Origin: an uncultured virus (IMG/VR IMGVR_UViG_3300031965_000010)
Taxonomy: Duplodnaviria > Heunggongvirae > Uroviricota > Caudoviricetes
Length of the DNA stretch: 64,000 nt
Direction: 5' to 3' (one strand)
IMG/VR virus record: IMGVR_UViG_3300031965_000010
Below are positions 11,054-35,337 of the stretch, one piece after another. The notes under the pieces were generated by a model that did no database searches, was not told where the DNA came from, and saw only the letters and a list, made by a program, of their open reading frames with translations. Position 1 is the first letter of the stretch, and every line of letters begins with the position of its first letter. The position numbers and the translations under genes are program-made.

Positions 11054-11272
11054 TCAAGGGGTCGCAGGCGCGGCGGGCGCGGCGGGCGCGGGCGCTTCGA
11101 CGGGTTCGACGGGAACCGCGGCGGGCGCTTCAACGACCGGTGCACCCACTTCGAGCGTCGTTCCAGCGTCCGCTGCGACGTCGGCTACGTCGGCTACGGG
11201 GGTGGCATCCAGTTCGCACGAAACCAGAGCCACGACGCCAATCAACACGCTGCCAAACAACACGGTCTTCAT
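11054..11272 (-). CDS. Small Pro/Ala-rich lipoprotein
   Basis: MKTVLFGSVLIGVVALVSC lipobox; AAGGAG SD. Confidence 0.65.
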   Translation of the reverse strand: MKTVLFGSVLIGVVALVSCELDATPVADVADVAADAGTTLEVGAPVVEAPAAVPVEPVEAPAPAAPAAPATP

Positions 11273-12018
11273 GAACCACTCCTTGGAAGTTGAGACGCGG
11301 CGTACGCGACCACGCCTACGATCGCCAGTGGGGCGACCCACCACGGAATCGTGCTGGGATTGAAAGGGTTCGGGACATTGCTCGCGGCTGCGAGAGATGT
11401 GTCGACCACTTCGATCGCAGCCTCGCGCGCTTCGTCCAACGACTGAGGAGTGACGCCTACGATCGAAGCCGTCACGGCCAACGGCAGCGACGTGAAACGA
11501 ACGATTGCTTCAACAAAGCCGACGCCGAGAATGTCGGTGATGCGCTGGGTCGCGGCCTGGACGTTGGCAAAGCCCAAAACCGAGCTTGCGGCCGTCGGGT
11601 TCGCGGCAATCGCGTTGATGCGCGTAGGCCCGACGCGCGAAGCGTAGTCGTGGGCGAGGCGCGCGGTTTCTTCCGTCTGAACATTCGTCGTGGTGTTCTT
11701 CACAAGCAACGCTTTTGCTGCGAGCGCTGCGAGACCTGCGCGGGCGATCGTAATCTGCGCCGACGTGATACCGACCGTCGCCGACGAGCCGAGGGAACCG
11801 AGCCCTCCGACGCGTTGTCGCGCGAAGTCGCGAAACACGCCGCCGCGCGTTCCAGGCTGCGGTGGGGCAAAGAAGTGCGGCCCGAGACCGTCGCGCATCC
11901 CGCGTTGCAGGCCGGGCTTGCCCGAGAACAAGCCCGTGTTACCCGCGCGCGAATTGATGGCGCCCGGAGCTTTGCCGAGACCTGAAAGGCCCTTCGCTTC
12001 GATGATCACGTACGCCAC
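11269..12018 (-). CDS. Putative virion membrane protein (C-terminal TM)
   Basis: GGAGGAG SD plus GTG; LSGLG and VGGLG motifs; WWVAPLAIVGVVAYA anchor. Confidence 0.7.
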   Translation of the reverse strand: MAYVIIEAKGLSGLGKAPGAINSRAGNTGLFSGKPGLQRGMRDGLGPHFFAPPQPGTRGGVFRDFARQRVGGLGSLGSSATVGITSAQITIARAGLAALAAKALLVKNTTTNVQTEETARLAHDYASRVGPTRINAIAANPTAASSVLGFANVQAATQRITDILGVGFVEAIVRFTSLPLAVTASIVGVTPQSLDEAREAAIEVVDTSLAAASNVPNPFNPSTIPWWVAPLAIVGVVAYAASQLPRSGS

Positions 12019-12113
12019 GCGCTCCTCCAATCCATCCGACCCTGTTCGCGCCCACCTTCGCGCCGCGCCGTTCACGACGCTCTGTTCGCGACGCTCTGTT
12101 CACGTCACGCCGT

Positions 12114-12713
12114 TCACGCCGCTGACGACTTGCGCTTCTTGCGCTCATTCAAAACGAGAACGACCGTTGCGATGGCCGCTGCGGCGCCAAGCACGAGCAT
12201 CGTCTTTCCGCCGCCCGAACTGGCTTCGCTAACCGGACTCGGGAAACGAATCGACACACCGGGACCTGGAAGAGGAGACACCACTGTTTTGGGAGCGGTC
12301 GCTTTGCCTGCCTTGTATGTGGCGTTGAACCACGCCTGCGCTTTGTCGTCGCCCGCTTTGCTGCCGTCCCCGCCCACGACAGAATTGGGCACGTGAAACT
12401 TGTAGAAGTACGTCTTGCCGGCGTCCTTGCCCGCCGCAGGCGTATTCGGAAACGTCCCGCGCACGAAGATGTACTTTTCGTTGTTAAAAAGACCCTCTTG
12501 GAACTTGTCCGCGTGTGCGGGCGGATCGCTGAACACGACTCCGGCTGCTGCAAGCTTCTTGACGGCCCTGGTGGGACCGTCTCCGGCGCCACCAGTGCCC
12601 CAGTCACCACCGACACCGCCAAACGGCGAGAACTCGGTGCCGTCCCCGCCAACAGCGCCGAGATTTCCGAGACCGCCTACCCTGCCACCGAGACCCGAGA
12701 TAATGTACGTCAT
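12114..12713 (-). CDS. Putative virion membrane protein
   Basis: MTYIISGLG start; C-terminal TM followed by ERKKRK. Confidence 0.7.
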   Translation of the reverse strand: MTYIISGLGGRVGGLGNLGAVGGDGTEFSPFGGVGGDWGTGGAGDGPTRAVKKLAAAGVVFSDPPAHADKFQEGLFNNEKYIFVRGTFPNTPAAGKDAGKTYFYKFHVPNSVVGGDGSKAGDDKAQAWFNATYKAGKATAPKTVVSPLPGPGVSIRFPSPVSEASSGGGKTMLVLGAAAAIATVVLVLNERKKRKSSAA

Positions 12714-12732
12714 TGTTGCATCCTGAAACGTC

Positions 12733-13194
12733 TCAGCGACGTCGTGCGAGAAGAACCAAACCGAGAACCGCGACCGCAGCGCCGCCGACGATGACGCCGG
12801 TCGGGATGTTTCCGAACATTCCGTTGGAAACGGGCTTTCCCGTTTGAACGTCGACGAGCACGGTCTCGCCCGTAGCCGTCGGAACCGGCTTCGTGCCCGA
12901 CGAGGACTTCGGACGCGGTCCGAGCGCAGCGACGATGGCTTGTTCGACAATTTCCGCCATGTACGGGATGTTGGCTGCGGCTGCGGCTTTCTTCGCCGCC
13001 TCGCGCATCGACATCGCCTTCGCGTCCCAAATAGCTTGCTCGACCGTCGACGATCCGCTCGCGACTTTCGAAGCCAGCTCAGCCGCGGCGCCGGGAACGC
13101 CGGCCTTCGCTTCGTTGGCGAGTTGTTCGAGCTGCGAAGCTTTCAACTTCGACACTGCGGCAGCGTCGCCGAGCCCATATAGATACGCCATCAC
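12733..13194 (-). CDS. Putative virion membrane protein
   Basis: MAYLYGLGD start; C-terminal TM plus RRR. Confidence 0.7.
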   Translation of the reverse strand: MMAYLYGLGDAAAVSKLKASQLEQLANEAKAGVPGAAAELASKVASGSSTVEQAIWDAKAMSMREAAKKAAAAANIPYMAEIVEQAIVAALGPRPKSSSGTKPVPTATGETVLVDVQTGKPVSNGMFGNIPTGVIVGGAAVAVLGLVLLARRR

Positions 13195-14507
13195 TTACCC
13201 CTACGAGAAAGAAGAACCGCGCCGACAGCGACGACCGCGAGCGCACCACCGACGAGAACGACAGGAGAAACACCGCTCGAAACGGTCGGCGGCGGTTCGA
13301 ATGCGGGCTTGAAATCGGAATCGTCTGCGCCACCGCCGCCGCCGCCGCCGCCGTCTGTGCCGCCGCCGCCGCCGTCGGGCTTCAACATCTCGTCTATTGC
13401 CTTACCGGCCAACTTGTTCACCAACTCAATAATGATTTTGGTGATGGCATCAACGATGGGCTCAGACGCCACGACCGTGCCTGCCGCTGCCGTCGCCGCT
13501 GTCGCTCCTGCCGCCTCTTCGCCGCCTGTCGCTCCGAGCCCTGAGAGGGAGAGCTTCAAAGAAGAACTCGGCTTCAACGGAGAAACGACTGGCGTAGTGG
13601 TGAACTTCAGACCAGCCGCAATTGTTTTCGCTCTCGCGATGGCGTCTTGAAGAGCGACTTGATCACGACGCTCTGCGATCTCGCGCTTCATCATGTCGAG
13701 CTTGTCGAAGTAGAAGAGTGTCTGCCAACGATCGTATATGTACTTCCGCCAGATCTCGATTCGCACTTCACCCTTGCTGGGATCGACTGGGATATCTTTC
13801 GTCGGAATCCATGCGTCGTTGATCCAACCATCCTTCAATAGCGCCGCTTCGGAGTCATTCGGTGTCACGCGGTGGTCGCGAACCGGTGCTCCAGCCGGAA
13901 CCTCGTCCGGAATCAAACTGTGCAGCGGTCCGAAATCATTGCGCGGCGGAATGATGTTCTGCGCGAACACGAATCCGACGGGGTCCGTGAATGCGATGGC
14001 GTAGAAGGCGTTGATCACCCGCAGGCGGCGAATGAGATTCATCCCAGCGGGGTCTTTCTTCTCCAGCGCTGCGTCGCCCGCGAGCGCCGTCAACTTTCCG
14101 GTCGCGTTGTCGCGCGCTCCCGCTTTGATGTTCACCGTCCTGCCGCTGAACGGCATGGTGATTTGAACCTTGCCCGTCTTTTTCACGTAGTCGCGAATCA
14201 TCAACGAGACAAAGGTTTCGATCGGGTCGAACAGGTCGACGAGAAAATCGAAAGGCCGCGTAAGTAGTTTGGCTTTGTCCGACCCACTCAGAAACGGCGC
14301 CATGTTGAGAGCGGGTGCGTACGGGGCGATCTTCGCCGCCAGCGCGATGTTGTATTCGTTCGTGACGGACGCAGACAGTGGAACAGCACCGAGCGTGGGC
14401 GCGACCAAGTACGGCGGACCGAGGCCCAAGCCGTAGTGTCCGATCGTGTGTCGGCGCGCGCGCGAGACGACGTCATGCTGCGTGGATTTCGGGCTGTGGT
14501 AGCTCAT
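13191..14507 (-). CDS. Putative virion membrane protein
   Basis: GLG motifs, Gly linker, C-terminal TM plus RRGK. Confidence 0.7.
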   Translation of the reverse strand: MSYHSPKSTQHDVVSRARRHTIGHYGLGLGPPYLVAPTLGAVPLSASVTNEYNIALAAKIAPYAPALNMAPFLSGSDKAKLLTRPFDFLVDLFDPIETFVSLMIRDYVKKTGKVQITMPFSGRTVNIKAGARDNATGKLTALAGDAALEKKDPAGMNLIRRLRVINAFYAIAFTDPVGFVFAQNIIPPRNDFGPLHSLIPDEVPAGAPVRDHRVTPNDSEAALLKDGWINDAWIPTKDIPVDPSKGEVRIEIWRKYIYDRWQTLFYFDKLDMMKREIAERRDQVALQDAIARAKTIAAGLKFTTTPVVSPLKPSSSLKLSLSGLGATGGEEAAGATAATAAAGTVVASEPIVDAITKIIIELVNKLAGKAIDEMLKPDGGGGGTDGGGGGGGGADDSDFKPAFEPPPTVSSGVSPVVLVGGALAVVAVGAVLLSRRGK

Positions 14508-15046
14508 TTGTTACTCTTCGGCGCGACCGCTTTCAGGATTTGCGACGCGGCATATGCGCCAACCACGAGTGCGAGCACCGTTCCGGTCTTCCCGAGCTTC
14601 GACGAAAGCGCTCCGCCCACAGCGCCGCCCGCGATGGCGAGGGCGATGAGGTTCGGCGCCTCTTGCTTCACGACCTTCACGACGCCTTCAGCGGCTTTAT
14701 CTTCGACCTTGTTCAAGAACTCGGCGCCGGGACCGGAACGAATGAACTTTTCAAGCTCACTCGAAACGGACTCCGTCGTGTCTTTCGTGACGTCCTCGAC
14801 CAGGCCCGAGCCCGATCTGAGCAAGTCGTCGAAGAACCCGTCGATTCTCGCCGATGACGACGGCGACGACACGGCACCCAGGCCGTTCACGGGATTCCAC
14901 GTCCACGGGAACTGTCGCGGCATCGTCGTTGGACGTCCCCGAGACAAGTCCGGGTAGATCTCATCTGGCTCGATGTAGCGCTGCGTCGCGCGGGCCATGC
15001 CAACACGGTACGGATGTTTCGAACCGGGGTCGCGGGTATGGGACAT
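14504..15046 (-). CDS. Putative virion membrane protein (2 TM)
   Basis: VNGLGAV; two hydrophobic segments at the C-terminus. Confidence 0.7.
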   Translation of the reverse strand: MSHTRDPGSKHPYRVGMARATQRYIEPDEIYPDLSRGRPTTMPRQFPWTWNPVNGLGAVSSPSSSARIDGFFDDLLRSGSGLVEDVTKDTTESVSSELEKFIRSGPGAEFLNKVEDKAAEGVVKVVKQEAPNLIALAIAGGAVGGALSSKLGKTGTVLALVVGAYAASQILKAVAPKSNK

Positions 15047-15052
15047 TCCCGG

Positions 15053-15075
15053 AGAGTACCGCTGTTTTTTGCTAC
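15053..15075 (-). promoter_or_regulatory. Viral late-type promoter GTAGCA-N11-TACTCT
   Basis: Motif match; 6 nt before ATG 15046. Confidence 0.75.
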
Positions 15076-15115
15076 GTTAGCTTCGTTGCTTCAGCGTCGT
15101 TGCTTCAGCGTCGAC

Positions 15116-15610
15116 TCAGCGCCGGAAACGCCGCCACAGCAGAAAACCAATCGCCGCAACACCGCCCCAGACGAGTAATTTCCCGCCACCACCGCCGAGC
15201 TGTCCCGTGAGGAACGGAAACGGATCGACAGCCGTGCCGTTCGGGTTTTTAAGCTCGAAGTGCAGGTGTGGCGCTGTGGCGCGGCCGGTCATCCCCGTTT
15301 CACCGATGATTGTTCCCGCGCCGACGCTCATGTCGGACGACACGAACATCCGAGACAGGTGCATCATGTTCACGCGCCAGCCGTCGGCGTTTCGAATCGT
15401 GATTGTGTTGCCACCGTTCGTCGACGAGGAGACCGTGACCTCGCCGCTCATCGGCGCGTGCAGTGGCGTACCTACAGGCGCTCGCAAGTCGACCCCGGCG
15501 TGAAACCCCGGCTCACCCGTCACCGGGTGGACGCGGTTGCCGAACGACGATGTTTTGGTCATCGACGCCAGCGGCAACGCTTCGATAGGGTTTGCCGAGA
15601 CTGCCATCAA
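15116..15610 (-). CDS. M23-family peptidase with C-terminal membrane anchor
   Basis: FHAGVDL (HxxxD), TGRATAPHLHFE (HxH), then TM plus RRFRR. Confidence 0.9.
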   Translation of the reverse strand: MMAVSANPIEALPLASMTKTSSFGNRVHPVTGEPGFHAGVDLRAPVGTPLHAPMSGEVTVSSSTNGGNTITIRNADGWRVNMMHLSRMFVSSDMSVGAGTIIGETGMTGRATAPHLHFELKNPNGTAVDPFPFLTGQLGGGGGKLLVWGGVAAIGFLLWRRFRR

Positions 15611-16140
15611 TCTTCGCCTTCGTCGTCAACGGCGCCCTCGTCGCCGTCATCCTCGTCGCCCGCGAACCTCGGCAAAACCCACTTATTCACCGCCCAGAAA
15701 CCGGCAGCGCCGGCCGCGACGCCGAGAGCGACCTTCACCCAGGGGAACCCTGGCTCTTCACCGGGGGCGTCGCCGACCCCTCCGATTCCGGGCTGAGTCG
15801 GGCCGAGCTGCGTCGGAGGCATCATCGCGGTCTGAGACTGGACCATCGAACCAGGACCGACCGTGACGCCCTGGGTGGCGAGCAACGCAACTTCCTCAGG
15901 AGTCGGGACGCGAAACTCCTCTTGAAACTCCACCTGCTGTCCGGGCGGGTTGTGTGGGTGACGAATCGCCCGAGCGACCCGCATGTGTCCCGGCGAGGGG
16001 TACGCAACGACGAGTGTTTCGCGCAAAGGCGTGCCGTCACCGTCGACGGGAGGCGCGGACGCATCCTCAGGTGGACCCCCGCGTCCGAAAACACCGTTGG
16101 GTCCGTGCTGCGTGAAGATGCCGCTGTTCGTGTTGGTCAT
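15607..16140 (-). CDS. Putative virion membrane protein
   Basis: IGGVGD; TM WVKVALGVAAGAAGFW; acidic tail. Confidence 0.7.
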   Translation of the reverse strand: MTNTNSGIFTQHGPNGVFGRGGPPEDASAPPVDGDGTPLRETLVVAYPSPGHMRVARAIRHPHNPPGQQVEFQEEFRVPTPEEVALLATQGVTVGPGSMVQSQTAMMPPTQLGPTQPGIGGVGDAPGEEPGFPWVKVALGVAAGAAGFWAVNKWVLPRFAGDEDDGDEGAVDDEGED

Positions 16141-16176
16141 TTTCTTTCCGAATTCCCGCCGATGTATTCGATCTGT

Positions 16177-16695
16177 TTACGCCGTCAAGCGTTTCGTGCT
16201 GCTGGTCGCGCGCTTCTTTCGCTCGCTGAAGAGCAGAAACCCTAGCGCTGCTGCGCCCGCCACCGCGAGCAACGGATTGACGCCAGCTTCCTTCACGTTT
16301 TTCTTCGGTGTCGGACCCAGCACTCCAGCGGGCGGACGTGGACCGCCTGCCGGAAGCAAAATCACGCTGTTCGAGGAGAACACCCAACGACGGACGGTCT
16401 TTCCAGTCGCTTTGTCTGCGAAAGTGAGGAGCTTACCGCCCGTCTTCTCCACCCAGCCGCCGTCACCTTCGATAGCCGCTGGACTGAACGAGACACCGTT
16501 CGCCTTCACGATCTCCTGCGCAGTCGTGTTGTACAGCTTGGCGAGACTGTGGGTCGTGTCGCTCGTGTCGAGCTGATCGCCGTCAAGCAGTTTCGTCGGG
16601 ACCAACGCGCGGCCGACGAATCCCGTCGCGCCCAACCCCACGATCCCCGCGTTCTTGTTCGCGACGTATCCGAGACCGCTCAAAACGTAAGTCAT
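16177..16695 (-). CDS. LysM-like domain membrane protein
   Basis: MTYVLSGLG; DTTHSLAKLYNTTAQEIVKANG; C-terminal TM plus ERKKR. Confidence 0.7.
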   Translation of the reverse strand: MTYVLSGLGYVANKNAGIVGLGATGFVGRALVPTKLLDGDQLDTSDTTHSLAKLYNTTAQEIVKANGVSFSPAAIEGDGGWVEKTGGKLLTFADKATGKTVRRWVFSSNSVILLPAGGPRPPAGVLGPTPKKNVKEAGVNPLLAVAGAAALGFLLFSERKKRATSSTKRLTA

Positions 16696-16697
16696 GC

Positions 16698-17567
16698 CTA
16701 CTTCCCACCCTTCAAAATCTTCCACCCAACGAGCGCCGCAATCCCGAAGATGATCCACCCCGCGTTGCTCGACGCGGCCTTCACCACCTCGACCGGAATG
16801 GTCGGCGTCAGATTCTCAGGCGGCGGTCCCGACGGAACAAGGTCCGTCGTCGCAGTCGACTCAGTAGACGGGGTGTTCACCGGTCGAGCGTCAGAGCCCG
16901 GCACCAGCTCGCCCGACGGAGAAACCGTCACCGTGCTCGTTTCGACCACGACCTCTTCGCCCGAAGACGGAGCCGGATACGACGAACCGCCGCCCGCTGC
17001 CCCCGCAGCCGCTGCTTTCTGCACTTCAGCCTGCGAAGCGCCCGTCGCGATGGCGCTGTACGCCGCCTTCGTGGCTTCACCAGCGCAGTCACGAATGTAC
17101 GTGATGCACATCGACGCGGCGGCATTGAGCTTGTTGATTTGATCTTGCGCGATCTTCATCATCTTCACGTCGTTGCGAAGACTCGCGCCGTGAAGCGTCT
17201 TCTGCCAGTTGGACAGCTCATAGCCGATCTTCTTCAGCAGCTTCTCCAACTCGGCCTGCTGACCGCGGTACTTGCCGACCAGAGCTAGGTACTTGTCCAC
17301 GATTGGAGCTGTGACCGTCGAGGCGCCCGTCGACGTCGTCGCGGTGTCGGTCGTCGCGGATGTTGTCGAAAACGTCTGCGTCGACTGCACCATACCGCTC
17401 AACTGCGCCAGCATACGCCGCACGCGCACGGGCTCTCGAGGGCGCAACGCGCGCGTCGCCATCATCGGCGAAGAGGACACGAAAGCACGCGACGGCGGGG
17501 CCGGCTCGCGAGGGCGCATCGACCGCGCTGACCGCTCCGTGATCACCCCATTCAGTACGTACGCCAT
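16698..17567 (-). CDS. Putative virion membrane protein (coiled coil, C-terminal TM)
   Basis: MAYVLNG start after GAGGG; WIIFGIAALVGWK. Confidence 0.7.
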   Translation of the reverse strand: MAYVLNGVITERSARSMRPREPAPPSRAFVSSSPMMATRALRPREPVRVRRMLAQLSGMVQSTQTFSTTSATTDTATTSTGASTVTAPIVDKYLALVGKYRGQQAELEKLLKKIGYELSNWQKTLHGASLRNDVKMMKIAQDQINKLNAAASMCITYIRDCAGEATKAAYSAIATGASQAEVQKAAAAGAAGGGSSYPAPSSGEEVVVETSTVTVSPSGELVPGSDARPVNTPSTESTATTDLVPSGPPPENLTPTIPVEVVKAASSNAGWIIFGIAALVGWKILKGGK

Positions 17568-17618
17568 TAGACCCTCGCTTTTGTGCTGGCTGACCGCCCG
17601 CGGACCCATTACCGCCCC

Positions 17619-17655: not shown

Positions 17656-18378
17656 TCACCGAGCCGTACCGGGACGGTCCTGCCACGAACCTTCGGGGCC
17701 GAGCTGTCCAATACGACGAGCGATTTTAAGCTTGTCGTAAGTCTGCGCCGGCATGCGGACCCCAGACACGTACGCGCCCGCGAAATCGATTCGCTGCGTC
17801 GCGACTGCCGGGACGTCCGGAGGAATCACGAACGGGTTCGGAATGGGGGCGGTACCAGCCGTCGGAGTGAGACGGAACAACACTCGGAAAATGGTCTTCG
17901 GCGGCAAATAGATGAGCGCGTACTCGTTCTGCATCCCGAAATCTCGCAACGACGGCTGATCGAGTCCGAGAAAAGTCGTCCCGCGCACAACCTCTCGATC
18001 TCGATTGTTCGGCGTCGCAGCAATCGTCGGCGAATTGTAGTCGTGTTCGACAAGGCGCGGCTGGTTGTTTGCCTTGTCGTTGTCGAACAGCACGAATCCA
18101 GCCAGCTCGCTCGGAGGGATCAACTGCACCGTTTCCGTCGCCAGTCCGACATTAATACGTCGCCAGCAATGCGGAAACACGTTCATGACCACTTCGCCCG
18201 TGTTGTCCGGAACAACGTGCTGGTGAACGATGAACAACCCCGTCGAAACGATGGGCGCGGCCTCGGCGCCCGTGCCCGTGAGGTCTTGACGCTTGTCGAT
18301 ATCGAACGACACGACCTCGTCGTCGACGAGGTATCCGAGCGGATTGTTCGCCGGATACGGAATGCCTAGACGTGTCAT
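17656..18378 (-). CDS. Putative jelly-roll minor capsid/vertex protein (divergent paralog)
   Basis: Beta-rich; C-terminal strand AGAYVSGVRM as in neighbours. Confidence 0.5.
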   Translation of the reverse strand: MTRLGIPYPANNPLGYLVDDEVVSFDIDKRQDLTGTGAEAAPIVSTGLFIVHQHVVPDNTGEVVMNVFPHCWRRINVGLATETVQLIPPSELAGFVLFDNDKANNQPRLVEHDYNSPTIAATPNNRDREVVRGTTFLGLDQPSLRDFGMQNEYALIYLPPKTIFRVLFRLTPTAGTAPIPNPFVIPPDVPAVATQRIDFAGAYVSGVRMPAQTYDKLKIARRIGQLGPEGSWQDRPGTAR

Positions 18379-19376
18379 CGGGGTCTCCTACCGCGTTCCA
18401 ACATTCGCGCGTCATCGTCGCTGTTGACGTCGTTCAGATTGTACGGGTGTCGTCGAGGATCGCTACTCGTGAGCCACGCGCCGTCCTTGAGCGCGTCTTG
18501 ACCTGTGTAGTAGCGGTTGCCGTGGAACTCGACGCGCACGGTTGCTTGTTCGACGCGGTTACCTGCGCTGCGATCGTCGATGCCGCCATACGGGAACGTC
18601 GCATCCGATGCTGCGATTTGGTAGAGGTCCATGATGGGCCGGAAGAGAAACGAGACCTGACCGTCGCGCTCGAACTGCCATGGTGTGTCGAACTCGAAAA
18701 GCTCGCTGTCCGGAATCATGTTGCCGCGCGTGTTCAACAGTGCGCCGCTCGGCATCCAATCCTGCGCGTACTGTCGTCCGCTCTTTTCGTCGACGATGTT
18801 CCAGAAATACGGAATGAACGGCATCACCGTGGTGAAGTCGCCGAGCACCTGTTGCTGCCAGGTGTACTGAATCGCCGTCGTCGGCGGACCGACGAATCCG
18901 CCAGCGGAAAATCCGTTGCCTTCGAGCGCTCTGTAATCGTTCAACGGCGTAATTCCATTGCGTGCGACGCCCGCGAACTGTGTGTACCCGGCCTCGATGC
19001 CCACCACGAGATTGTGTGCCTGCAAAATTCCAGGCGGCGGAAACAGGACCGGAATCCGGTACGTCTGCCCCGCGAGAAAAATCGGATTCACCTGCAACGC
19101 GATGAACGCGACGGGCGGCACCGCGTCCGGGTTCGTCGGAAACTGCGCGATAGTGATCGTAGTCGATGTGTCTGCAACGAACGTCTGCTCACCAATGGCG
19201 ACCGATGGCTGTCCGTTCGCTAGCGGCGTGTTCAGACGCTCATTGATTCCGGCGAGCTGCGCGCGCAGGTTTCTCGCACGCACCGCGAGCTGTTGAAGCC
19301 AGCCGACACCTTGGCCAGAAGAACCACGCGCCAACCGACCTGTTTCAACGACCCGAGTAGGGATGATTCGCTTCAT
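18375..19376 (-). CDS. Putative jelly-roll minor capsid paralog
   Basis: WNIVDEKSGRQY..WMPS; VRVEFHGNRY; N-terminal coiled coil. Confidence 0.6.
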   Translation of the reverse strand: MKRIIPTRVVETGRLARGSSGQGVGWLQQLAVRARNLRAQLAGINERLNTPLANGQPSVAIGEQTFVADTSTTITIAQFPTNPDAVPPVAFIALQVNPIFLAGQTYRIPVLFPPPGILQAHNLVVGIEAGYTQFAGVARNGITPLNDYRALEGNGFSAGGFVGPPTTAIQYTWQQQVLGDFTTVMPFIPYFWNIVDEKSGRQYAQDWMPSGALLNTRGNMIPDSELFEFDTPWQFERDGQVSFLFRPIMDLYQIAASDATFPYGGIDDRSAGNRVEQATVRVEFHGNRYYTGQDALKDGAWLTSSDPRRHPYNLNDVNSDDDARMLERGRRPR

Positions 19377-19413
19377 CGTAGCTCGCCCTTCTTACGACTA
19401 TCTCTCGACGGGT

Positions 19414-20106
19414 TCATCGGAGCGCCGCTACTTTCTTCTCGCCTTCGAGAATGCCAACGATCTTGTAGCGGTGCTGCCGCACGATATCGACTTCAACGTC
19501 ATCGATGAGCGCGGGCTCCTCGATTGTTCGGATGCCTAGAAAGGTCGGCGTCACTCGACACACGAGACTCTTCGAGCGCGCCAGGAACAGCGGAACATCG
19601 AAAACCATCCCAGACGGAGTCTGCGAAGCACCGCCCCATCGAGACGCCCCTACCCACTTCAACATGTCGACGCAGTACGCAGCGGACACGGGGGTGTCGA
19701 TGTTTTGGTATTCTTTCCCCTCGTAAATGAGTGCGAACGTCGCATCCGCCAATGTGTTGATGTCTGTGTACAACGTAGCCGGATTTGGGACGAATCCAGG
19801 ATCTCCATACACGGAAGACCACGTCGTTTCACGGAAGGTGGTCTCGGACGGAGTGCCGTTCACCGGGTCGACGACCTTGCAGAGCGGGTACAGCAACAAC
19901 CGATAGGCCCAAAAGTCCGCGTCCGCAGGAACGTTGAAGATCAGATTCGCAGAGGGGGCTGCGCCCTGCGAAAACTCGGCTGAAGCAGGGAGCGGCGTGT
20001 AAACGCGATCGCCGCTGCGCAAACCTCGCACGTTCTGCGCGGCGCGCTGCGCTCGCTCAAGCAAACGTGCTGCCTTATCTGTTTGAGCTACGATCTCCGT
20101 CAACAT
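19414..20106 (-). CDS. Putative jelly-roll minor capsid paralog
   Basis: PADADFWAYRL; IVGILEGEK. Confidence 0.6.
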   Translation of the reverse strand: MLTEIVAQTDKAARLLERAQRAAQNVRGLRSGDRVYTPLPASAEFSQGAAPSANLIFNVPADADFWAYRLLLYPLCKVVDPVNGTPSETTFRETTWSSVYGDPGFVPNPATLYTDINTLADATFALIYEGKEYQNIDTPVSAAYCVDMLKWVGASRWGGASQTPSGMVFDVPLFLARSKSLVCRVTPTFLGIRTIEEPALIDDVEVDIVRQHRYKIVGILEGEKKVAALR

Positions 20107-20172
20107 CGCCGACCTCCCTCTCCGTCCCCGCCGTCCATCACTCCGATACCATACGCAACTACGCTACGCCGC

Positions 20173-20886
20173 CTACGCTCCGTAAACCTTGTATCCAACG
20201 AGCGATAAGAAGACTCTGGAGCTGATTGAATCTTCGCCACTCAATGAACACACGCCCATGTTGAACACTTCAACTCTCACGTCACCTGAACGCGGGACGG
20301 TGAACTCCGAGAAGAGTGCGTTCTTCATGTTCGACCCGAGCCCCGGTCGGATACTGGAGATGTACGACAGCGGAACGACACCCCGATCGAGCGAGAACGG
20401 ACCCGTCGACATTCCGGCGACGAGATTTCGTCCGGTCGCGACGTCCGTGATGCGAAGCAGCGGATCTATGGTGCTGTCGTCGGCGCCGAACGACCCGTCG
20501 TCCGCGTAGTCCTCAATAAAAAACGGCGGATTTGGTGAGGACCGTACGATCTGAATGGCTCCGAAAATACCTGTGACCACGAACGCCGCGTCTTCTTGAT
20601 TCCGTAAATAGCCGATCTTCGCGTTTGAGAACCCAAACGTGTTGGGGTCGTTCTGCGCCCCGAGAAGAATGCCGTTCTGTTGGTCGCGGTCGTCGACGGC
20701 GCTGAGAAAATAAGCCCGGTGTTCGGTCGAGACGTCGTCCGCCGGCATGACCGGAATCCGACCGTCGTTCAAAATAGCGAGCTGTTCGTCAACAAGCTGT
20801 AGGTCTCGCTTCGTCGCCAACAGAAGCTCGCGCGCCGCGTCCAACTTCACCCGGTGGTGGTCGGGTCTTTGGTTTTCATCGACCAT
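20173..20886 (-). CDS. Putative jelly-roll minor capsid paralog
   Basis: QEDAAFVVTGI; RITDVATGRNL; VFLSLVGYKV. Confidence 0.6.
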   Translation of the reverse strand: MVDENQRPDHHRVKLDAARELLLATKRDLQLVDEQLAILNDGRIPVMPADDVSTEHRAYFLSAVDDRDQQNGILLGAQNDPNTFGFSNAKIGYLRNQEDAAFVVTGIFGAIQIVRSSPNPPFFIEDYADDGSFGADDSTIDPLLRITDVATGRNLVAGMSTGPFSLDRGVVPLSYISSIRPGLGSNMKNALFSEFTVPRSGDVRVEVFNMGVCSLSGEDSISSRVFLSLVGYKVYGA

Positions 20887-20889
20887 AAA

Positions 20890-21531
20890 TCAGCCGCCTT
20901 CTCTGTAACCGGAAATAAGCATTGCGACGACCGCTGACGGATGCGGTCCGAAGCCAGTGTCGAAAACCCGCATGCCCGCTCCGAGCAACTCACACTCGAA
21001 TGTGAACGTCTCCATCGGTTCGATGATCTGCGGGTTACGGAAAGAGAGATGGTTTCCAACTTGTGTTCGTCCGCCTGCTCGTGCGAAGCAGCGCCCTTTC
21101 TGCGAATACCAGCGCTGTTGAATGGACGTTTGAAAATTCCAACGCCAGTTGAACGGAAACACACCTGCCGTCGCTGCTGCTGCAAGCCGTGCGTCATATG
21201 TCGCAGAGCCCGCGACGATCGGCGTCGTCGGACGAATCAAGTACGGCTGAAACGCGATTTCCCGCACATACACACGTGAACTGTGGTTTGTGAAGATCGA
21301 TTGCTTGACGTTGTTTCCTGCGAGCGCGTCCGACGAAGCAGGGGTCGCCGCAGCGAACGTGGAAGGAAGTTGATCAAACCTCGCTTCGATCGAAGCGAAG
21401 AACGGAATCTCTCGCTGAATCGGTTGCGAGGGTTCGATTGCTCGAACAACTCGACTAATCAACGCGTCCGCGTGTTTGTTCAAGTCTACAAGCTCGGACC
21501 ACAATCCCGAACCGATGGATGGGTTGCTCAC
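20890..21531 (-). CDS. Putative jelly-roll minor capsid paralog
   Basis: RVYVREI; WNFQTSIQQRWY; VAMLISGYRE. Confidence 0.55.
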   Translation of the reverse strand: MSNPSIGSGLWSELVDLNKHADALISRVVRAIEPSQPIQREIPFFASIEARFDQLPSTFAAATPASSDALAGNNVKQSIFTNHSSRVYVREIAFQPYLIRPTTPIVAGSATYDARLAAAATAGVFPFNWRWNFQTSIQQRWYSQKGRCFARAGGRTQVGNHLSFRNPQIIEPMETFTFECELLGAGMRVFDTGFGPHPSAVVAMLISGYREGG

Positions 21532-21562
21532 AGCGAACCTCCAATCATTGTTCTACTGGACA

Positions 21563-22204
21563 TCACAGTGCACTCCCGTCCGGCACTTCGTGTCCGACGA
21601 ACGATATTTGAAGCACGTATTGCTGAATGGTTCCGTCTGCGAAAAACCCGGACGCGCTCTGATTCATCTCGCTTCTAAACGGTTCGACCGTCGAGAAAAT
21701 TACACTGCCACCACCGAGAATCGTTCGACGCGGAAGCCACAGCGGTCCCGTGTATCCGCCGCCACCGAAGAGAGACGGCAACGGTTGATCCATCCATTCT
21801 CGATCTGTACCTGTGTCCCGGACGCGCCAGAAATAGTCGAATAGGTTGAGCCTGATGTTCCAGGGCAACGTCACCTGTACGGAAACGTCTTCTCCCGAAT
21901 ACGAATCCTCGGCGGTTCCGACTGCGCGGAGGAAGCTTTCCACGTAAGCGCAACGAAAAATCATACCGGTCTCGACGGTGACCGAGCGCTCTTGAGGCTG
22001 AAGGTCGCCCGGCTCGAATTGGAAATCGATGCTGTACCGTCGGTATTGAATACCTGCGAAATCGGTCGGAAAGTCGCCGGCCGGTGCGTTCACCTCGAGA
22101 AGTCCGTTGAGCTGCGCCGTCTTCGATTCGAGCTGACGCTGGAGGCGTCGATACTCGTTCGCTAGCTCCACGATTTCGTTCTGATCACTCATTGCGCACT
22201 CCAC
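21563..22204 (-). CDS. Putative jelly-roll minor capsid paralog
   Basis: WRVRDTGTDREWMDQPLPS; LQISFVGHEV. Confidence 0.6.
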   Translation of the reverse strand: MECAMSDQNEIVELANEYRRLQRQLESKTAQLNGLLEVNAPAGDFPTDFAGIQYRRYSIDFQFEPGDLQPQERSVTVETGMIFRCAYVESFLRAVGTAEDSYSGEDVSVQVTLPWNIRLNLFDYFWRVRDTGTDREWMDQPLPSLFGGGGYTGPLWLPRRTILGGGSVIFSTVEPFRSEMNQSASGFFADGTIQQYVLQISFVGHEVPDGSAL

Positions 22205-22227
22205 TCCGACTGCCTACTTGACGTCGC

Positions 22228-23067
22228 CTACAGGTTCGGTGCCTCGAGGTGCGCCGTACCCTTGAACACGAGCACCACGTACGCCTTCACGCTCGCCGCC
22301 TCGAAAGCCGTCGCGCCGTCGAGAATGGAGCCCATGCGGATCTCCTTCACGAACAACCGCGGTTCGATCTTCGAGCCCTGTTCCCAATTCAGCACGCTCG
22401 CCGTTTCCCTGTTTGCGATTCGTCCACCCTGGAACATCGTCGACGGCAGGCGCTGGTCGTGCATCCTGCGCCCCCTGATTCGGTCGTACAGCTCAATCTC
22501 AAACGAGATGTTCGGAAGGTTTGGCTGCGCTGAGCTGAGCGTAGAAAATGTGCCGCCGAAAAAGTCGAGAGGCATCGCGCCACCGTTAGGGCCAACCCCA
22601 GGATTGGGACCCACCGCATCGAAGATGTCTCCGACTCCGTTGGGGTTCGTGTACGGAACCGCGAAGCCGGGGTTCGATGTGTACCCCCAGTTCACGAACC
22701 CAAACGCGCTCAAGCTCTTCACCCTGACGGACTGGTTCCGGCTGACGATGATGTCGCCGTTGCGAGGCACCACGAACTTGGACGGATCTGCGAGCGTCGC
22801 GAGGGTTTGGAAGCCGTCCTGTCCGACGAGGTTGCCGGGACGGCCGGCTGTGGTCAAAGGCAGCGGGCCGTACAGGACCGGCGTGCAGTAGCTCTCGATG
22901 CGACCGGGGCCTTGGTCGTACGGGGTGGGCTTCAGGAGCAAATCGTTGAGGTCGTCGAGCTTGCTCCCGATCAAGTCCATGAATCGCTTGAAGGGCAACT
23001 GACGATGTTTGTCGAGGAGGTTCCCGAAGTCCGGCTTCACGTCATAGTCGGGCTGCTTGGTACGCAT
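22228..23067 (-). CDS. Putative jelly-roll minor/second capsid paralog
   Basis: IELYDRIRGRRMHDQRLPS; VVLVFKGT. Confidence 0.6.
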   Translation of the reverse strand: MRTKQPDYDVKPDFGNLLDKHRQLPFKRFMDLIGSKLDDLNDLLLKPTPYDQGPGRIESYCTPVLYGPLPLTTAGRPGNLVGQDGFQTLATLADPSKFVVPRNGDIIVSRNQSVRVKSLSAFGFVNWGYTSNPGFAVPYTNPNGVGDIFDAVGPNPGVGPNGGAMPLDFFGGTFSTLSSAQPNLPNISFEIELYDRIRGRRMHDQRLPSTMFQGGRIANRETASVLNWEQGSKIEPRLFVKEIRMGSILDGATAFEAASVKAYVVLVFKGTAHLEAPNL

Positions 23068-23207: not shown

Positions 23208-23291
23208 TACCGGGAACGGGACTCGAACCCGTACGAGCTTGCGCCCTGTCGATTTTAAGTCGACTGCGGCTACCTGTTACGCCATCCCGGC
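23208..23291 (-). tRNA. tRNA-Leu(UAA)
   Basis: GCCGGGA/TCCCGGT-A acceptor stem, GTCGA-CTTAAAA-TCGAC anticodon arm, long variable arm, GGTTCGAGTCC T arm; CCA not encoded. Confidence 0.93.
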
Positions 23292-23347
23292 TGGTACACG
23301 CTACTCTCGTGGTGACAAGTAGTCCAGTATTGCTTTACGCTGGTCGC

Positions 23348-24325
23348 ATGAAGAGACCCAAAGGACTCCCGGCCTCACCAGGTATCTACAAAATCGAATG
23401 CGACGTGACTTCAAAGGCGTACATCGGACAAGCGACCAGCCTTCGAGCGAACGCAAGCAACCATCTATACAAGCTGAATCTCGGCATCGACTACAACCCA
23501 CCGCTCCAGGCCGCCTACAACAAATACGGCGCGAACAACTTCACGTACTCACTGCTGGAGCTTTGCGCGGAAGCCGATCTCACCGCGCGCGAGCAATGGC
23601 ACATGGACGCCGTTCCAAAGGGTAAATTGTTCAACACGAAGCCGGCCGGACCAAGCGGTACCCTCGGACTCAAACAACCAGAAGAGCAAAAACTCAAACA
23701 CAGTCGATCGAAGGGTGGACGCCCTTTCTACGCCACTCACGAGACCACGGGCGAAGTCCACCACTTCGAACACGTCGGCGAAGCCTGTCGAAAACTGCCT
23801 GGCCTCCAACGCGCGCACGTTTACTCCGTCCTGCACGGAACCCGCACAAGTCACAGAGGGTTCACGTTCGACTACGACCCGAGCTTTCCGATCCCGACAC
23901 ACAAACACAAAGCCAAGCGACCTCTCGGTGGCGACCATCGAAGTCGCGCGCTGATCGGAACCTGCATCGAAACGGGAATGGAGACAACCTACGATTACGT
24001 CGGTGCCGTGAAACACGCCGGGTTCTCCACTTCAGCCGTCTATCTATGTCTCGCTGGCGGGATGCAAACCCACAAGGGTTTTCGCTGGCGGTACGCCGAC
24101 GGGTTGCCTCATAGAACTTCGACCAAGACTGAACATCTGAAGGGAGCGCGCATCAAGCATGGAGGCTCGCGCGCGATCGTGGGCGTGCATCGAGTCACCG
24201 GAGAGAAAGTCCGTTTCGAATACATTCGCCAAGCCGCTGACGCACTGGGCGTACATCCACAGAACATCTCCGCCGCGTTGAAGAAGGGGTGGGCTACCAA
24301 CGGTTACGTCTGGACCTATGAATAG
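23348..24325 (+). CDS. Free-standing GIY-YIG homing endonuclease with repeated NUMOD/IENR-like domains
   Basis: PGIYKI...AYIGQ...REQ; three C-terminal repeats (TGE..F..V..A...H.G..W.Y); antisense to the virion module. Confidence 0.9.
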   Translation: MKRPKGLPASPGIYKIECDVTSKAYIGQATSLRANASNHLYKLNLGIDYNPPLQAAYNKYGANNFTYSLLELCAEADLTAREQWHMDAVPKGKLFNTKPAGPSGTLGLKQPEEQKLKHSRSKGGRPFYATHETTGEVHHFEHVGEACRKLPGLQRAHVYSVLHGTRTSHRGFTFDYDPSFPIPTHKHKAKRPLGGDHRSRALIGTCIETGMETTYDYVGAVKHAGFSTSAVYLCLAGGMQTHKGFRWRYADGLPHRTSTKTEHLKGARIKHGGSRAIVGVHRVTGEKVRFEYIRQAADALGVHPQNISAALKKGWATNGYVWTYE

Positions 24326-24370: not shown

Positions 24371-25465
24371 TTAGAGGACGTCGCGAGTTTTGCCAGTTGT
24401 TATCGGTTGGCTCTTTATCCAACCATCTGAATCTTTCGAAGCAGAGCAGACTATATCATCATCCCTTAGGATGCCGGGCACTCGTGGGCGGGATTGTTCG
24501 GCTCCCCCGCCTAGTCGTTGAACCTTCTACTCTGTTCTCTTTCGAGTCCGCAGAGCAGCTCGGCTGCTGATTGTCCAATCCACCGTTCTTTTCGACGTTC
24601 GCGCTTACCGTTACCAGTTACGCTGTAGTGTCGGTGGCTCTAAGGAGTTTCCAGCAATTCACCCAGTTTGCTGCACACCTTCCGGCGTGCAGGGACTTCA
24701 CGCAGCGAGGGCCTGTGTGTGTCGAACGCCGAACACCTTGTTCAGCATCGACTCAATCCCGTCGAGCACGCAGCCGAGCAGCTTGATGCCGTCGAACGCG
24801 TTGAGGTACGCCAAAGGGTCAAGCGCACTAGTATACGCCGTTGCCGCGTTGCCTGCGGTACCAGCAGTACCACCGGTACCCGCGCCAGGAACGTTACCAG
24901 TGATGGGTTTGTAGTTGAAGAAGTCGAGCTTCGTATGAAACCCTTGACGGGCAGGGATGGGAATATCTTTTGCTAAGAGCAAAATGTTTTCCTGGCTAGG
25001 CCATCCATTTGAAGCGATGTTGCGCGAGTTTTCAGTTGTACTGCCAAAGATGCCCATGCCTGCGGGGCAGTACACCAATTGCGACGTGAACTGATCTTTC
25101 TCAGAGCAGTTGAACGTCAGGTGGCAGCCATAGCCGAGCAGGCTGTACAGGTCGAGCGCGCGGCTGTTGGTGCCGGCGACGGTTGCGCCGTTGAGCGCCG
25201 GCAGGAGCGCCGGGTTGCCGTAGGCGTCGAATTCCGAATCCTTGAGGGACTGAAACATCATCACCGCACGAATCGCCTTCACGACGAAGGTCTGATCTGA
25301 CGTGAACGCGCCAGACGTTTGCATGTTGGTGAATTCGGCAGAACTGTTGGGCGAGTCCGAAAAGAGCCGCACGCCGTTGGTCACTTGCGAGACGCCGATT
25401 CCTCGGACCGCCATTGACCAAACGGGTTGGTGGATTCTTTCACGGGCTCCGTCAAAACGAGGCAT
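24371..25465 (-). CDS. Candidate major capsid protein (single jelly-roll type), intron-split: exon 1 25465-24756, exon 2 about 24394-24371
   Basis: AGGAAGG SD; own promoter and flanking terminators; TNMQTSGAFTSDQTFVVKAIR and LGCVLDG motifs parallel the downstream paralogs; exon 2 encodes KTRDVL*. Confidence 0.7.
24395..24755 (-). ncRNA. Group I self-splicing intron (ORF-less) in the capsid gene
   Basis: P AATTGCTGGAAA (24648-59), Q AATCAGCAG (24564-72), R GTTCAACGACTAG (24511-23), S GATATAGTCT (24448-57). P2 hairpin CTGCACGCC-GGAA-GGTGTGCAG. IGS AGUCCC pairs with exon GGGAU (U-G). Ends ATAACAACTG; boundaries +/-1 nt. Confidence 0.9.
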
Positions 25466-25662: not shown

Positions 25663-26892
25663 TCAGCGCTGCGATGGTCCGCGGAAGAGCCCGCCAGCGA
25701 GGATTCCGCCCTCACCCGGTGCCCACTCCGTCGTGTCGTCGAGACCGTTCACGGCCCACTCAGTGTCGTTGTCCGCCGACGCACGCGGACGCTGGTTGCT
25801 GTACGCGCCACCGCCTCGCGCTACGATCTGATCGACGCCGTACGCGCCCATGCCGTTCGTCGCCCACTCAGTGCGGTTGTCGGACGTGTTTCGCGGACGG
25901 CTGTTGCTGTACGCGCCGCCGCCACGAGCGACCGATGTGGTCCCGAGACCGCCAACGGTCGTGTAGTCGCCGATGTCGCGGAAGATGCCGGCTTTGGCGT
26001 ACGAACGACCACCCACGGTCGTGTAGTCGCCAACGGTCGTGTAGTCACCGAGACCAAGCGCCGTCTTCGCCTTCGCCGCGAGACCATCAGTCTTCCCTTC
26101 GGAAGCCGCGGAAACGGCCTGCATGACCGCTGCGAGCAAACCACCGATGGCGACAGCACCCTTGTACTTCGGAGCGAACTTGTCGGCGAGCTTGTAGCCA
26201 ACCACCGACACGAGCGCCGTCGAAAGCGCGGGCATGTACTTTACGATCGCCCGTGGCTTCTTGTCCGCGTCGAGGAACGCGCCACGCACAGCACCAAGTC
26301 CGTTCGTTGCGGCCGATGCCGTGCTCGTCTCCGTGACAGCCTCAGGAGTCGTCACGGCGGCTTCAGCAACTTCCTTCGGATCTGCCGTCGTCGTGACGAG
26401 GTCGCTCAGTTTCCGGCCAAGCATCGCGAGACCGACCATCGACACAGCGCTCGCACCGACCTGGGGCGCAAGCACCTTCGCCGCTGTCCACAGACCTCCG
26501 AGACCGGGGTTCATCTTGAGGTGCATCGCTTTCGCGACGGCCGATTTCTTCGGGCTACCGCCTCTGAGAGCGACGCGACGGAGCGTCGACAGACGCTTCG
26601 CCTGCGTCATCGCCACGCTGCGACGCACAGATCCGCGCTTCATCCCGCGCGCCCTCTTACGCAACGCACTCGCCTTGCGCATGAGCCCGCGGCTCGTCGC
26701 TCGACGACGGCGTGCCGCCTTCGAAAGACGACGACGCTTCTTTCGGGGCTTGGCAGCGCCCGGAGGCGTCACGCGCGCGAAAATCCCGGAACCGGGATTG
26801 CGGCGCAAACGTCGACGAAGCCGACGACCGCGCCTGCGGCGCGAAGGGTTGCGAGCGGCTTTGCGAGCGTGACGTCGACGACGGCGGGCCAT
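25663..26892 (-). CDS. Arg-rich (protamine-like) membrane-associated core protein, paralog 2
   Basis: MARRRRRH...; hydrophobic helices; GDYTTV repeats. Confidence 0.75.
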   Translation of the reverse strand: MARRRRRHARKAARNPSRRRRGRRLRRRLRRNPGSGIFARVTPPGAAKPRKKRRRLSKAARRRRATSRGLMRKASALRKRARGMKRGSVRRSVAMTQAKRLSTLRRVALRGGSPKKSAVAKAMHLKMNPGLGGLWTAAKVLAPQVGASAVSMVGLAMLGRKLSDLVTTTADPKEVAEAAVTTPEAVTETSTASAATNGLGAVRGAFLDADKKPRAIVKYMPALSTALVSVVGYKLADKFAPKYKGAVAIGGLLAAVMQAVSAASEGKTDGLAAKAKTALGLGDYTTVGDYTTVGGRSYAKAGIFRDIGDYTTVGGLGTTSVARGGGAYSNSRPRNTSDNRTEWATNGMGAYGVDQIVARGGGAYSNQRPRASADNDTEWAVNGLDDTTEWAPGEGGILAGGLFRGPSQR

Positions 26893-26969
26893 GGAAACAC
26901 CTACAAGGGAAAGAGAAACCAACGAGAAGAAAGACGGAGGGGCGATCTCTCACCCCTCCGCCTCACGCA

Positions 26970-28340
26970 TCAGCGCGACGACGGTCCGCGAAAGAGACCA
27001 CCCGCGAGGATTCCGCCCTCGCCCGGCGCCCACTCCGTCGTGTCGTCGAGACCACGCAGCGAGTCGTGTGCGAACTCGGTCGCGTTGTCCGCTCCCTCGC
27101 CCACGGTCGTGTAGTCGCCGATCTCACGGAAGATCCCCGCTTCGGCGTACGCACGACCGCCAACGGTCGTGTAGTCGCCCACGGTCGTGTAGTCGCCGAG
27201 GCCAAGCGAAAGACCGAGAGCCTCCTTCGCCTTCGCCGCGAGACCATCGGTCTTGGTCGACGTCGCCGCCGCTGCCGCAACCGCCTGAACAACCGCCGCC
27301 AAGAGCCCGCCGATGACGACAGCACCCTTGAACTTCGGAGCGACCTTGTCCGCGACAACGTACCCGAGCCCCGCAGTCGCGGCCGTGACGATCGAAGGCA
27401 TGTACGCCGCGAGCGTGGGCTTGTCCGCGAAGAACGCCTTCGGTGTCGCTGCGGGTCCCGTGATCATCTCTGACACCTGACGACCAATCATCGCCGAACC
27501 AAGCAGCGCGACCGCACCTGCGCCAGCCTGCGGAAGGAGGACCTTCGCCGCCGTGAGGAGCCCAGCCATGCCCGGATTCGTTCGAATGTGCATCGCCTTC
27601 GAAAGAGCACTCTTGCCAGCACGCTTCGGGTAGCGCTTCGTCAAACGACGAAGAGCCGACGCGCGATGCGCCTGCGCAGTCGCGACCGCGCGACCAAGCG
27701 AACGCTTCTTTCGGCGGCGCGCCACCTTGCGGAGACGCGACACAACCGCGAGGCCGTGCGAACGTCGCTTGAAACGACGCTTACGGTGACGAGTCACCTT
27801 GCGCGAAGAACGCTTCACGAGCGCCTTCGACGGGTTGCGGCGAAGACGACGCTTCCTGCGACGCGGGCTAGAACGACGAGCGCGCTTCGCGCCAGCGATC
27901 ATCCGCTTCGTCGCGGCACGCTGCGCGGCCGAACGACGCTTCCTGCTCGGGTTGCGCGCGAGACGACGCTTCCGACGACGCGGGTTCGTGCGCGGCGCGG
28001 ACATGGCAATCGCGGCCGGCGATCCTGCCTGCACCGGATTGCGGCGACGACGCACGCGGGACTTCCGGCGCTTCGGGTTGGACTTCAGGCGCGTGAAACG
28101 ACCGAGCTTGTTGCGACGAGCGCGGGGATTGCGACGGGCCTTCTTTGCAGAGCGACGCTTACGACGACGAGCCATGGGATTTTTCCTTTTCGTGTGGACC
28201 TGTGCTTTTTTGGCAGAACGCCGAGACCGACGACGAACCCCACGCACAGCCGGGCGTCCCGGATTTACGACGAGCAACTCGACCGGATTCCGGCGCATGC
28301 GGGTTCGGGCAGAGCGACTCGGCGAACGCGAGAGTTTCAT
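26970..28340 (-). CDS. Arg-rich (protamine-like) membrane-associated core protein, paralog 1
   Basis: Long R/K-rich tract punctuated by NP; C-terminus nearly identical to paralog 2; alternative ATG at 28175. Confidence 0.75.
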   Translation of the reverse strand: MKLSRSPSRSARTRMRRNPVELLVVNPGRPAVRGVRRRSRRSAKKAQVHTKRKNPMARRRKRRSAKKARRNPRARRNKLGRFTRLKSNPKRRKSRVRRRRNPVQAGSPAAIAMSAPRTNPRRRKRRLARNPSRKRRSAAQRAATKRMIAGAKRARRSSPRRRKRRLRRNPSKALVKRSSRKVTRHRKRRFKRRSHGLAVVSRLRKVARRRKKRSLGRAVATAQAHRASALRRLTKRYPKRAGKSALSKAMHIRTNPGMAGLLTAAKVLLPQAGAGAVALLGSAMIGRQVSEMITGPAATPKAFFADKPTLAAYMPSIVTAATAGLGYVVADKVAPKFKGAVVIGGLLAAVVQAVAAAAATSTKTDGLAAKAKEALGLSLGLGDYTTVGDYTTVGGRAYAEAGIFREIGDYTTVGEGADNATEFAHDSLRGLDDTTEWAPGEGGILAGGLFRGPSSR

Positions 28341-28347
28341 GAGGAGA

Positions 28348-28370
28348 ACTCTACCGCCGTTTTTTGCTAC
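28348..28370 (-). promoter_or_regulatory. Viral late-type promoter GTAGCA-N11-TAGAGT
   Basis: Motif match; 7 nt before ATG 28340. Confidence 0.75.
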
Positions 28371-28424
28371 ATCATCAACCACTCAAAACGCGTAGTCACC
28401 ACAGCGCCAATAACGCCAATGACG

Positions 28425-34692: not shown

Positions 34693-35337
<645 letters not shown>

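Follow-up and report, generated by a model that had tools for sequence, protein, structure and literature searches.

A conserved block of seven predicted jelly-roll genes, six of them paralogs, as candidate vertex capsomer proteins of a probably tailless bacterial virus

In the solved double-stranded DNA viruses with single jelly rolls, two or three barrel proteins build the shell. In SPV1, VP4 forms the hexamers and VP10 the pentamers (PMC8459092). The Halopanivirales (former Helvetiavirae: HCIV-1, HHIV-2, SH1 and P23-77) have vertical single jelly rolls and hetero-hexameric capsomers (PMC6414509, PMC6441041), and the HCIV-1 penton protein VP9, itself a jelly roll, has an N-terminal helix that points to the membrane and interacts with a membrane protein (PMC6414509). 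The present work concerns seven consecutive genes (g1 to g7) of an uncultured virus, IMG/VR record IMGVR_UViG_3300031965_000010. The window, i.e., the whole stretch of 64,000 nucleotides that was analysed, is the first 64 kb of this 76,144-base record. Seven minus-strand open reading frames (ORFs) in succession occupy positions 17656-23067 exactly (5.4 kb), as an earlier note made from the letters of the window had pointed out. The best overall explanation, to which a probability of about 50% is given, is that g1-g6, jelly-roll paralogs armed with an N-terminal helix, are together with g7 the low-copy vertex capsomers of a tailless icosahedral virus.

The seven genes are, in minus-strand order:

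22228-23067, minus strand: g1, 279 amino acids; paralog with N-terminal helical arm and long insertions; 68 proteins found, itself included
21563-22192, minus strand: g2, 209 amino acids; heptad helix 2-34 and predicted eight-stranded single jelly roll
20890-21531, minus strand: g3, 213 amino acids; putative paralog by a weak link, armed
20173-20886, minus strand: g4, 237 amino acids; putative paralog by a weak link, armed; 82 proteins found, itself included
19414-20106, minus strand: g5, 230 amino acids; paralog, armed
18375-19376, minus strand: g6, 333 amino acids; paralog, longer N-terminal region with helix
17656-18378, minus strand: g7, 240 amino acids; probable jelly roll, armless, with a conserved helix-like C-terminal segment; candidate penton

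The AlphaFold2 model of g2, built on 98 aligned sequences, reaches a predicted local distance difference test score (pLDDT) of 91.5. It consists of a 33-residue helix (residues 2-34), followed by a sandwich of eight strands that contains an insertion. Among 48,161 chains the best structural match is the SPV1 capsid protein (6oj0_T; Z 8.6, root mean square deviation 3.1, 128 aligned); PHM (8.4), HHIV-2 6h82_b (8.2), HDT1 (8.1) and the STIV turret protein 4ind (7.8) come next, and HCIV-1 (Z 7.1), the HFTV1 turret 8qpg (Z 6.7) and P23-77 VP17 (Z 6.6) are lower. The HHIV-2 chain would be VP9, judging from its length. A separate structure comparison returned PHM, nucleoplasmin and VP17. Foldseek against viral models gave only jelly-roll matches of low TM (template modelling) score, and a profile search of PDB sequences gave nothing significant, most of the weak matches (E 0.5-9) being coiled coils over the arm. 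The modelled fold of g2 is thus certainly a jelly roll in kind; since the top matches are tied, its nearest structural relative is not fixed among them. By kinship, the same single jelly-roll fold is predicted for g1 and g3-g6, firmly for g1, g5 and g6 and weakly for g3 and g4. In the g2 model, the D-xxx-D/G-R..P motif lies at the turn following strand 118-126, and the terminal glycine lies in the last strand, where it is invariant (98/98).

When the seven proteins are compared one sequence against another, no pair of the 21 is significant (best z 2.5, equalled by 7 of 200 shuffles). The likeness seen by eye in the earlier note is therefore no better than chance at this level, and it becomes a link between six of the proteins once relatives are added. 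All 11 motifs quoted in that note are present in the genes named, and the D-x3-[G/D]-R..P motif, given there as a shared element, occurs in only four of the seven (g1, g2, g4 and g6) and in 9 of the 347 ORFs of the genome overall. With shallow profiles, the sole HHalign link is g2-g6. Against the g2 family, HHalign gives P 87 and E 3.6e-6 for g1, P 81 and E 1.2e-5 for g5, and P 80 and E 1.3e-5 for g6; g4 aligns with it over 133 columns in register (E 0.01), and g3 matches g6 with E 0.0019. The all-versus-all HHalign comparison proposed as a check thus ties g2 to g1, g5 and g6, gives g3 and g4 values in a range that overlaps that of controls, and leaves g7 unlinked. It must be noticed that 10 of the 105 g2 matches (fragments, partial or repeat-driven sequences) were excluded from the g2 profile used for HHalign, that P0199 and P0202 were also excluded from alignment A7 and P0295 from the g4 profile, and that large families were subsampled.

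A hidden Markov model (HMM) of g2, applied to the related locus L012 (a locus not included as such in the profile), retrieves g2, g5 (1.9e-12), g1 (8e-4), g3 (4.8e-3), g6 (8.6e-3) and g4 (1.8e-2); all the other ORFs stay at 0.05 or above. A leave-one-family-out HMM test was run in two replicates with 600-800 shuffles, the score being the number of members above every shuffle. The scores are 6/8 and 7/8 for g1, 8/8 twice for g2, 6/6 twice for g6, 3/6 and 5/6 for g5, 2/6 twice for g3, and 3/8 and 2/8 for g4. In both replicates g7 scores 0/5 and each of three control families 0/4. The window's own g3, g4 and g5 are below the best shuffles, and they join the family because their orthologs beat the shuffles. 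On these profile comparisons, g1-g6 are one ancient paralog family (firm for g1, g2, g5 and g6, weaker for g3 and g4). The set is thus six paralogs plus one, g7 being beyond the reach of the sequence tests. The earlier claim of seven capsid-like paralogs stands for g1-g6, through the profile tests and the g2 fold, and finds no support for g7.

Twelve related loci were compared; L013 is a repeat of L012, and L005/L006 and L009/L010 are near-duplicates. The four loci that span the block (L001, L005, L010 and L012) all hold seven genes in the same order, with number and order kept from 79% down to 23% identity (about 23-41% in the most distant relatives). In L010, g3 and g4 were recognised from their position and an alignment; BLAST was not the basis. 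Four further loci (L006, L007, L008 and L011) are cut inside the block and consistent as far as they reach; the other four end too early. In the four complete relatives, 20 of the 24 junctions overlap or lie at most 1 base apart. A search with the g2 profile gave 105 matches among 50%-identity representatives, for all of which the g2 profile is the best of the paralog profiles. No additional family member was found among the 347 ORFs of the genome. Scans that depend on short exact patterns found no relative in IMG/VR (three scans, and with a g2 sub-alignment), and in GTDB none with the capsid alignment described below and one locus with g2. L012 comes from a Gemmatimonadota bin; its 14-kb contig carries virion genes throughout, so no host is inferred from the bin.

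The arm of g2 has a heptad pattern (hydrophobic columns 14, 17, 21, 28 and 31 over 98 sequences), and 43 of 46 sampled members of the g2 family have it. N-terminal helical arms are found in g1-g6 (by inspection for g1 and g3-g6) and not in g7. An amphipathic N-terminal helix had been announced for most of the proteins; the arms bear this out as helices, and within the window a helical-moment test gives p<0.05 only for g2, g3 and g5. In L010 (13702-15775), g2-g5 are compact versions of 160-190 amino acids, three of them armless.

The protein g7 is conserved in 4 loci. Its Atlas model is of low confidence (pLDDT 0.50), and the nearest structures are viral beta-sandwich clusters (TM 0.46) and DISMED2/CBM domains; its feature neighbours P2_C/P2_N (PM2 capsid domains; 0.76-0.77) are below the bar of the tool. 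On this model, g7 is probably a jelly roll.

The block lies behind a candidate gene for the major capsid protein, with which three further features are listed:

24371-25465, minus strand: major capsid protein candidate, about 243 amino acids; a group I intron interrupts the last codons
24336-24363, minus strand: terminator-like hairpin and U run, directly after the capsid-candidate stop
23208-24325: insert between the capsid candidate and g1, i.e., a GIY-YIG/NUMOD homing endonuclease (23309-24325, plus strand) and a tRNA-Leu (23208-23291, minus strand)

The minus-strand order is: transglutaminase-like gene, two Arg-rich repeat genes, capsid candidate, hairpin, insert, g1-g7, and genes for proteins with a hydrophobic C-terminus. 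The capsid candidate (41 proteins found, itself included) is the best conserved of the eight genes in all four complete loci: 83, 73, 55 and 49%, vs. 23-79% for g1-g7. A hairpin with a U run stands behind the capsid stop in six of the seven related loci examined; the seventh has hairpins but no clear U run. Genome-wide, terminator-like sites are not above chance (13 vs. 10.8 ± 3.3), and only the position and recurrence of the capsid hairpin count. The capsid gene and g1-g7 cannot be told apart by codon usage. None of the eight genes has a Pfam, PHROGs or NCBIfam match, and the GenBank phage collection contains no match to the capsid candidate or to the L012 ortholog of g2.

The model of the capsid candidate is weak (pLDDT 57.6); its jelly-roll matches are XepA (Z 6.6), nucleoplasmins (6.3) and SPV1 (6.0). 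XepA and the cupin 5uqp are reported as neighbours of SPV1 VP4 too (PMC8812541). In the leave-one-family-out test against g1-g6, 0 of 8 capsid members exceed the shuffles in both replicates, and the best HHalign E-value (0.0075) lies in the control range. The derivation by capsid gene duplication proposed earlier thus comes down to a common fold class with no significant sequence link. A closer relationship of g7 to the capsid candidate was considered and rejected as faint: of ten capsid sequences, the g7 profile picks up one, whose 8.2 bits fall short of the best shuffle (10.0).

The group I intron of the capsid gene (24393-24755, minus strand; Rfam match 24427-24709) lies near the end of the gene. 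The final exon was placed by frame logic just before the stop at 24371, and agrees with the C-terminus of the relatives. The endonuclease gene is outside the intron, antisense, beyond the capsid stop; in L010 an endonuclease with 39% identity occupies the corresponding site. The homologs P0005, P0015 and P0029 diverge at the same point, which suggests that they carry the same intron site.

From position, fold and hairpin, a minor role in the shell is inferred. It is probable that g1-g7 are minor capsid jelly-roll proteins, the upstream capsid candidate likely building the bulk of the shell. The surroundings of g1-g7 are virion-like: capsid candidate, Arg-rich repeat proteins, transglutaminase-like protein and C-terminal-hydrophobic proteins. 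Since number and order are fixed and the orthologous groups are separate, each paralog may hold one position of its own, not interchangeable with the others. That they form a hetero-oligomeric capsomer of the vertex region has about an even chance. As to its geometry, the six armed proteins equal in number the subunits of a single-jelly-roll hexamer (as in SPV1), hence the favoured model, in which g1-g6, one copy each, would form a hetero-hexamer. Their arms would gather into a bundle on its underside, directed to an inner membrane or a scaffold; the inward direction is suggested by the penton of HCIV-1, whose N-terminal helix faces the membrane. The armless g7 would form a homo-pentameric penton next to the hetero-hexamer. 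This exact six-plus-one arrangement is tentative. More speculative still is a broader proposal, i.e., that such a vertex serves as the starting point of assembly or as the exit of the genome, in tailless bacterial viruses of 80-110 kb that form a widespread lineage and have no recognisable packaging motor. A complex prediction of g1, g2, g3 and g4 gave 0.61 with g2 as the partner, vs. 0.49 for a control, and is used neither for nor against this.

A possible though less probable account is that each paralog makes its own homo-oligomeric or two-protein capsomer, which takes the place of the capsid protein at special sites, e.g., those that bear fibres or a unique vertex for genome delivery. In PBCV-1, five capsid variants and a penton variant, mostly homo-oligomers, are found at the unique vertex and the fibre sites (PMC9617893), and the consecutive jelly-roll proteins of Borgs are predicted to be homo-pentamers or hexamers (PMC12660748; bioRxiv 10.1101/2024.11.05.622173). 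A heptad arm would bundle equally well in a homo-oligomer, and the loss of the arm in three L010 genes fits independent capsomers. The strict order and the gene overlaps suit co-assembly instead, though operons of separate parts share them. Receptor-binding parts usually vary in number and sequence, whereas g1-g7 keep theirs fixed in number and order over the whole range of identity given above; it is thus unlikely that they form an outward turret or spike for host attachment, with stacked jelly-roll rings on the vertex and the helices as a stalk. The genome also has other fibre-like candidates, i.e., a BclA-like ORF (31341-32225) and long repeat ORFs past 71 kb. The turrets of STIV and HFTV1 are nevertheless among the g2 matches, and jelly rolls arranged in series make up the HHIV-2 spike (PMC6414509). 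It is very unlikely that g1-g7 are an internal scaffold, a sub-capsomer layer or non-virion beta-sandwich proteins whose likeness to capsid proteins is a matter of common fold only. Cellular jelly rolls do tie with the viral matches, and g1-g7 have no family annotation; on the other side, in every locus the virion gene block surrounds these genes, and the clusters that neighbour g2 and g7 in the Atlas are viral to 82-100%.

Several points weigh against low-copy hetero-oligomeric vertex capsomers: (i) g3 and g4 are weakly linked, their pairwise HHalign E-values (0.002-0.05) overlapping those of controls (down to 0.008); (ii) cellular PHM and nucleoplasmin-like HDT1 tie with SPV1 among the g2 matches, and a Z of about 8 can mean a common arrangement; (iii) in L010, g2, g4 and g5 are armless, so a six-helix bundle is not obligatory; (iv) in the window, only two of the six junctions between g1 and g7 are within three bases; (v) the count of six may be a coincidence; (vi) the published predictions for the Borg runs favoured homo-oligomers over the hetero-hexamers tested, two-protein ones being the only hetero-hexamers reported as tried (PMC12660748; bioRxiv 10.1101/2024.11.05.622173).

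The 76,144-base record has no terminal repeat and is therefore probably an incomplete contig; relatives of the capsid candidate sit on contigs that reach 102-110 kb (110,596 bases at most). The window encodes DNA polymerase A, a primase-like protein, a helicase, exonucleases, sigma-70, an M23 peptidase and a YoeB/YefM pair. The bacterial type of sigma-70, polymerase A, M23 peptidase and YoeB/YefM points to a bacterial host. The single sequencing run listed as containing the record is a soil metagenome, possibly its source. Within the 64 kb, no HK97 capsid, portal, terminase or tail protein, as expected of Caudoviricetes, was found in 44 ORFs (PHROGs and Pfam) and 27 further ORFs (Pfam), and the virion block itself is of the jelly-roll kind; one scaffold-like coiled-coil match below the cutoff lies outside the seven-gene block. 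A crude motif scan of the 347 ORFs of this probably incomplete contig found no fitting Walker A motif of an FtsK/HerA-type packaging ATPase. The virus is most likely a large, undescribed tailless bacterial virus.

Other genes of the virion block deserve description. Two paralogous, very Arg/Lys-rich proteins (25663-26922 and 26970-28382, minus strand) have RRNP repeats and a common hydrophobic C-terminal half. The pair is kept in all loci reaching that far, with a strong hairpin between the two genes (26931-26964); these are likely DNA-condensing core proteins. About nine small proteins (11269-17609 and 29259-29858, minus strand), one of which is the M23 peptidase, have GLG motifs and, at the C-terminus, a hydrophobic stretch with basic residues after it. 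They are candidate inner-membrane or entry proteins, possibly cleaved by the transglutaminase-like protein (29871-30392). A trio at 32680-36012 (minus strand), i.e., a Cys/His-rich protein, an acidic helical protein and a 670-amino-acid charged coiled-coil protein, has no family match and opens the virion block in all loci reaching it (L005, L007, L010 and L012); it is a possible assembly scaffold. Elsewhere, the YefM/YoeB type II toxin-antitoxin pair is at 9724-10631 (minus strand), and at 36906-40903 (plus strand) a MoxR AAA+ ATPase, an unknown protein and a VWA protein stand in tandem, with a G+C content above that of the flanks.

Neither this virus group nor a six-protein capsomer was found described in the literature covered, which includes few subscription journals. 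Seven extra, non-interchangeable jelly-roll-type proteins kept over deep divergence would mean a shell far more differentiated than the solved single-jelly-roll ones. In the literature found, such a shell has been solved so far only in a eukaryotic giant virus. This bears on how large shells assemble and deliver their genome without a tail, a portal or an obvious motor. The block is also compact and cloneable, and g2, which alone finds about 100 clusters at 50% identity, may serve as a marker for an apparently undescribed virus group.

SPV1, of the Portogloboviridae, resembles the present virus by its single-jelly-roll shell, and it gives both the best g2 match (Z 8.6) and one of the top matches to the capsid model (Z 6.0). 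It has two jelly-roll shell proteins, vs. up to eight jelly-roll genes in one block here (g7 being probable and the capsid model weak). SPV1 is reported to lack a packaging ATPase (PMC8812541), and none was seen here by the crude scan of a probably incomplete contig. Portogloboviridae have a circular genome of about 20 kb, no polymerase and a hyperthermophilic archaeal host; the present genome has at least 76 kb, DNA polymerase A, sigma-70 and M23 peptidase, and its bacterial-type genes and soil metagenome run speak, indirectly, for another kind of host. The Arg-rich repeat proteins and the hydrophobic-tailed proteins are only suggestive of a Portogloboviridae-like nucleoprotein core and inner lipid layer.

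The Halopanivirales, with HHIV-2 chain b matching g2 at Z 8.2, share the jelly-roll kind of fold. HCIV-1 and HHIV-2 have two major capsid proteins and a penton, and their hetero-hexamers are of two major proteins, whereas six minor ones are proposed here; one capsid candidate stands out in the present block, by its conservation and the hairpin behind it. They also have an FtsK-type packaging ATPase, vs. no fitting Walker A here in the crude scan of the probably incomplete contig. With respect to SPV1 and to HCIV-1/HHIV-2, the earlier description of the set as more elaborate holds. In Borgs, however, five or six jelly-roll genes in a row, together with one highly expressed capsid-like gene, have already been reported (PMC12660748; bioRxiv 10.1101/2024.11.05.622173). 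According to the same sources, Borgs lack a ubiquitous packaging ATPase. They differ in being archaeal giant elements, in having the run apart from the main capsid gene and in the homo-oligomers proposed, and they are likened to the present virus by description only. PBCV-1 is comparable in that paralogs of its shell proteins occupy special lattice positions, including mixed capsomers (PMC9617893). If g1-g6 do form a six-protein hetero-hexamer, the same solution may also explain the six-gene runs of Borgs.

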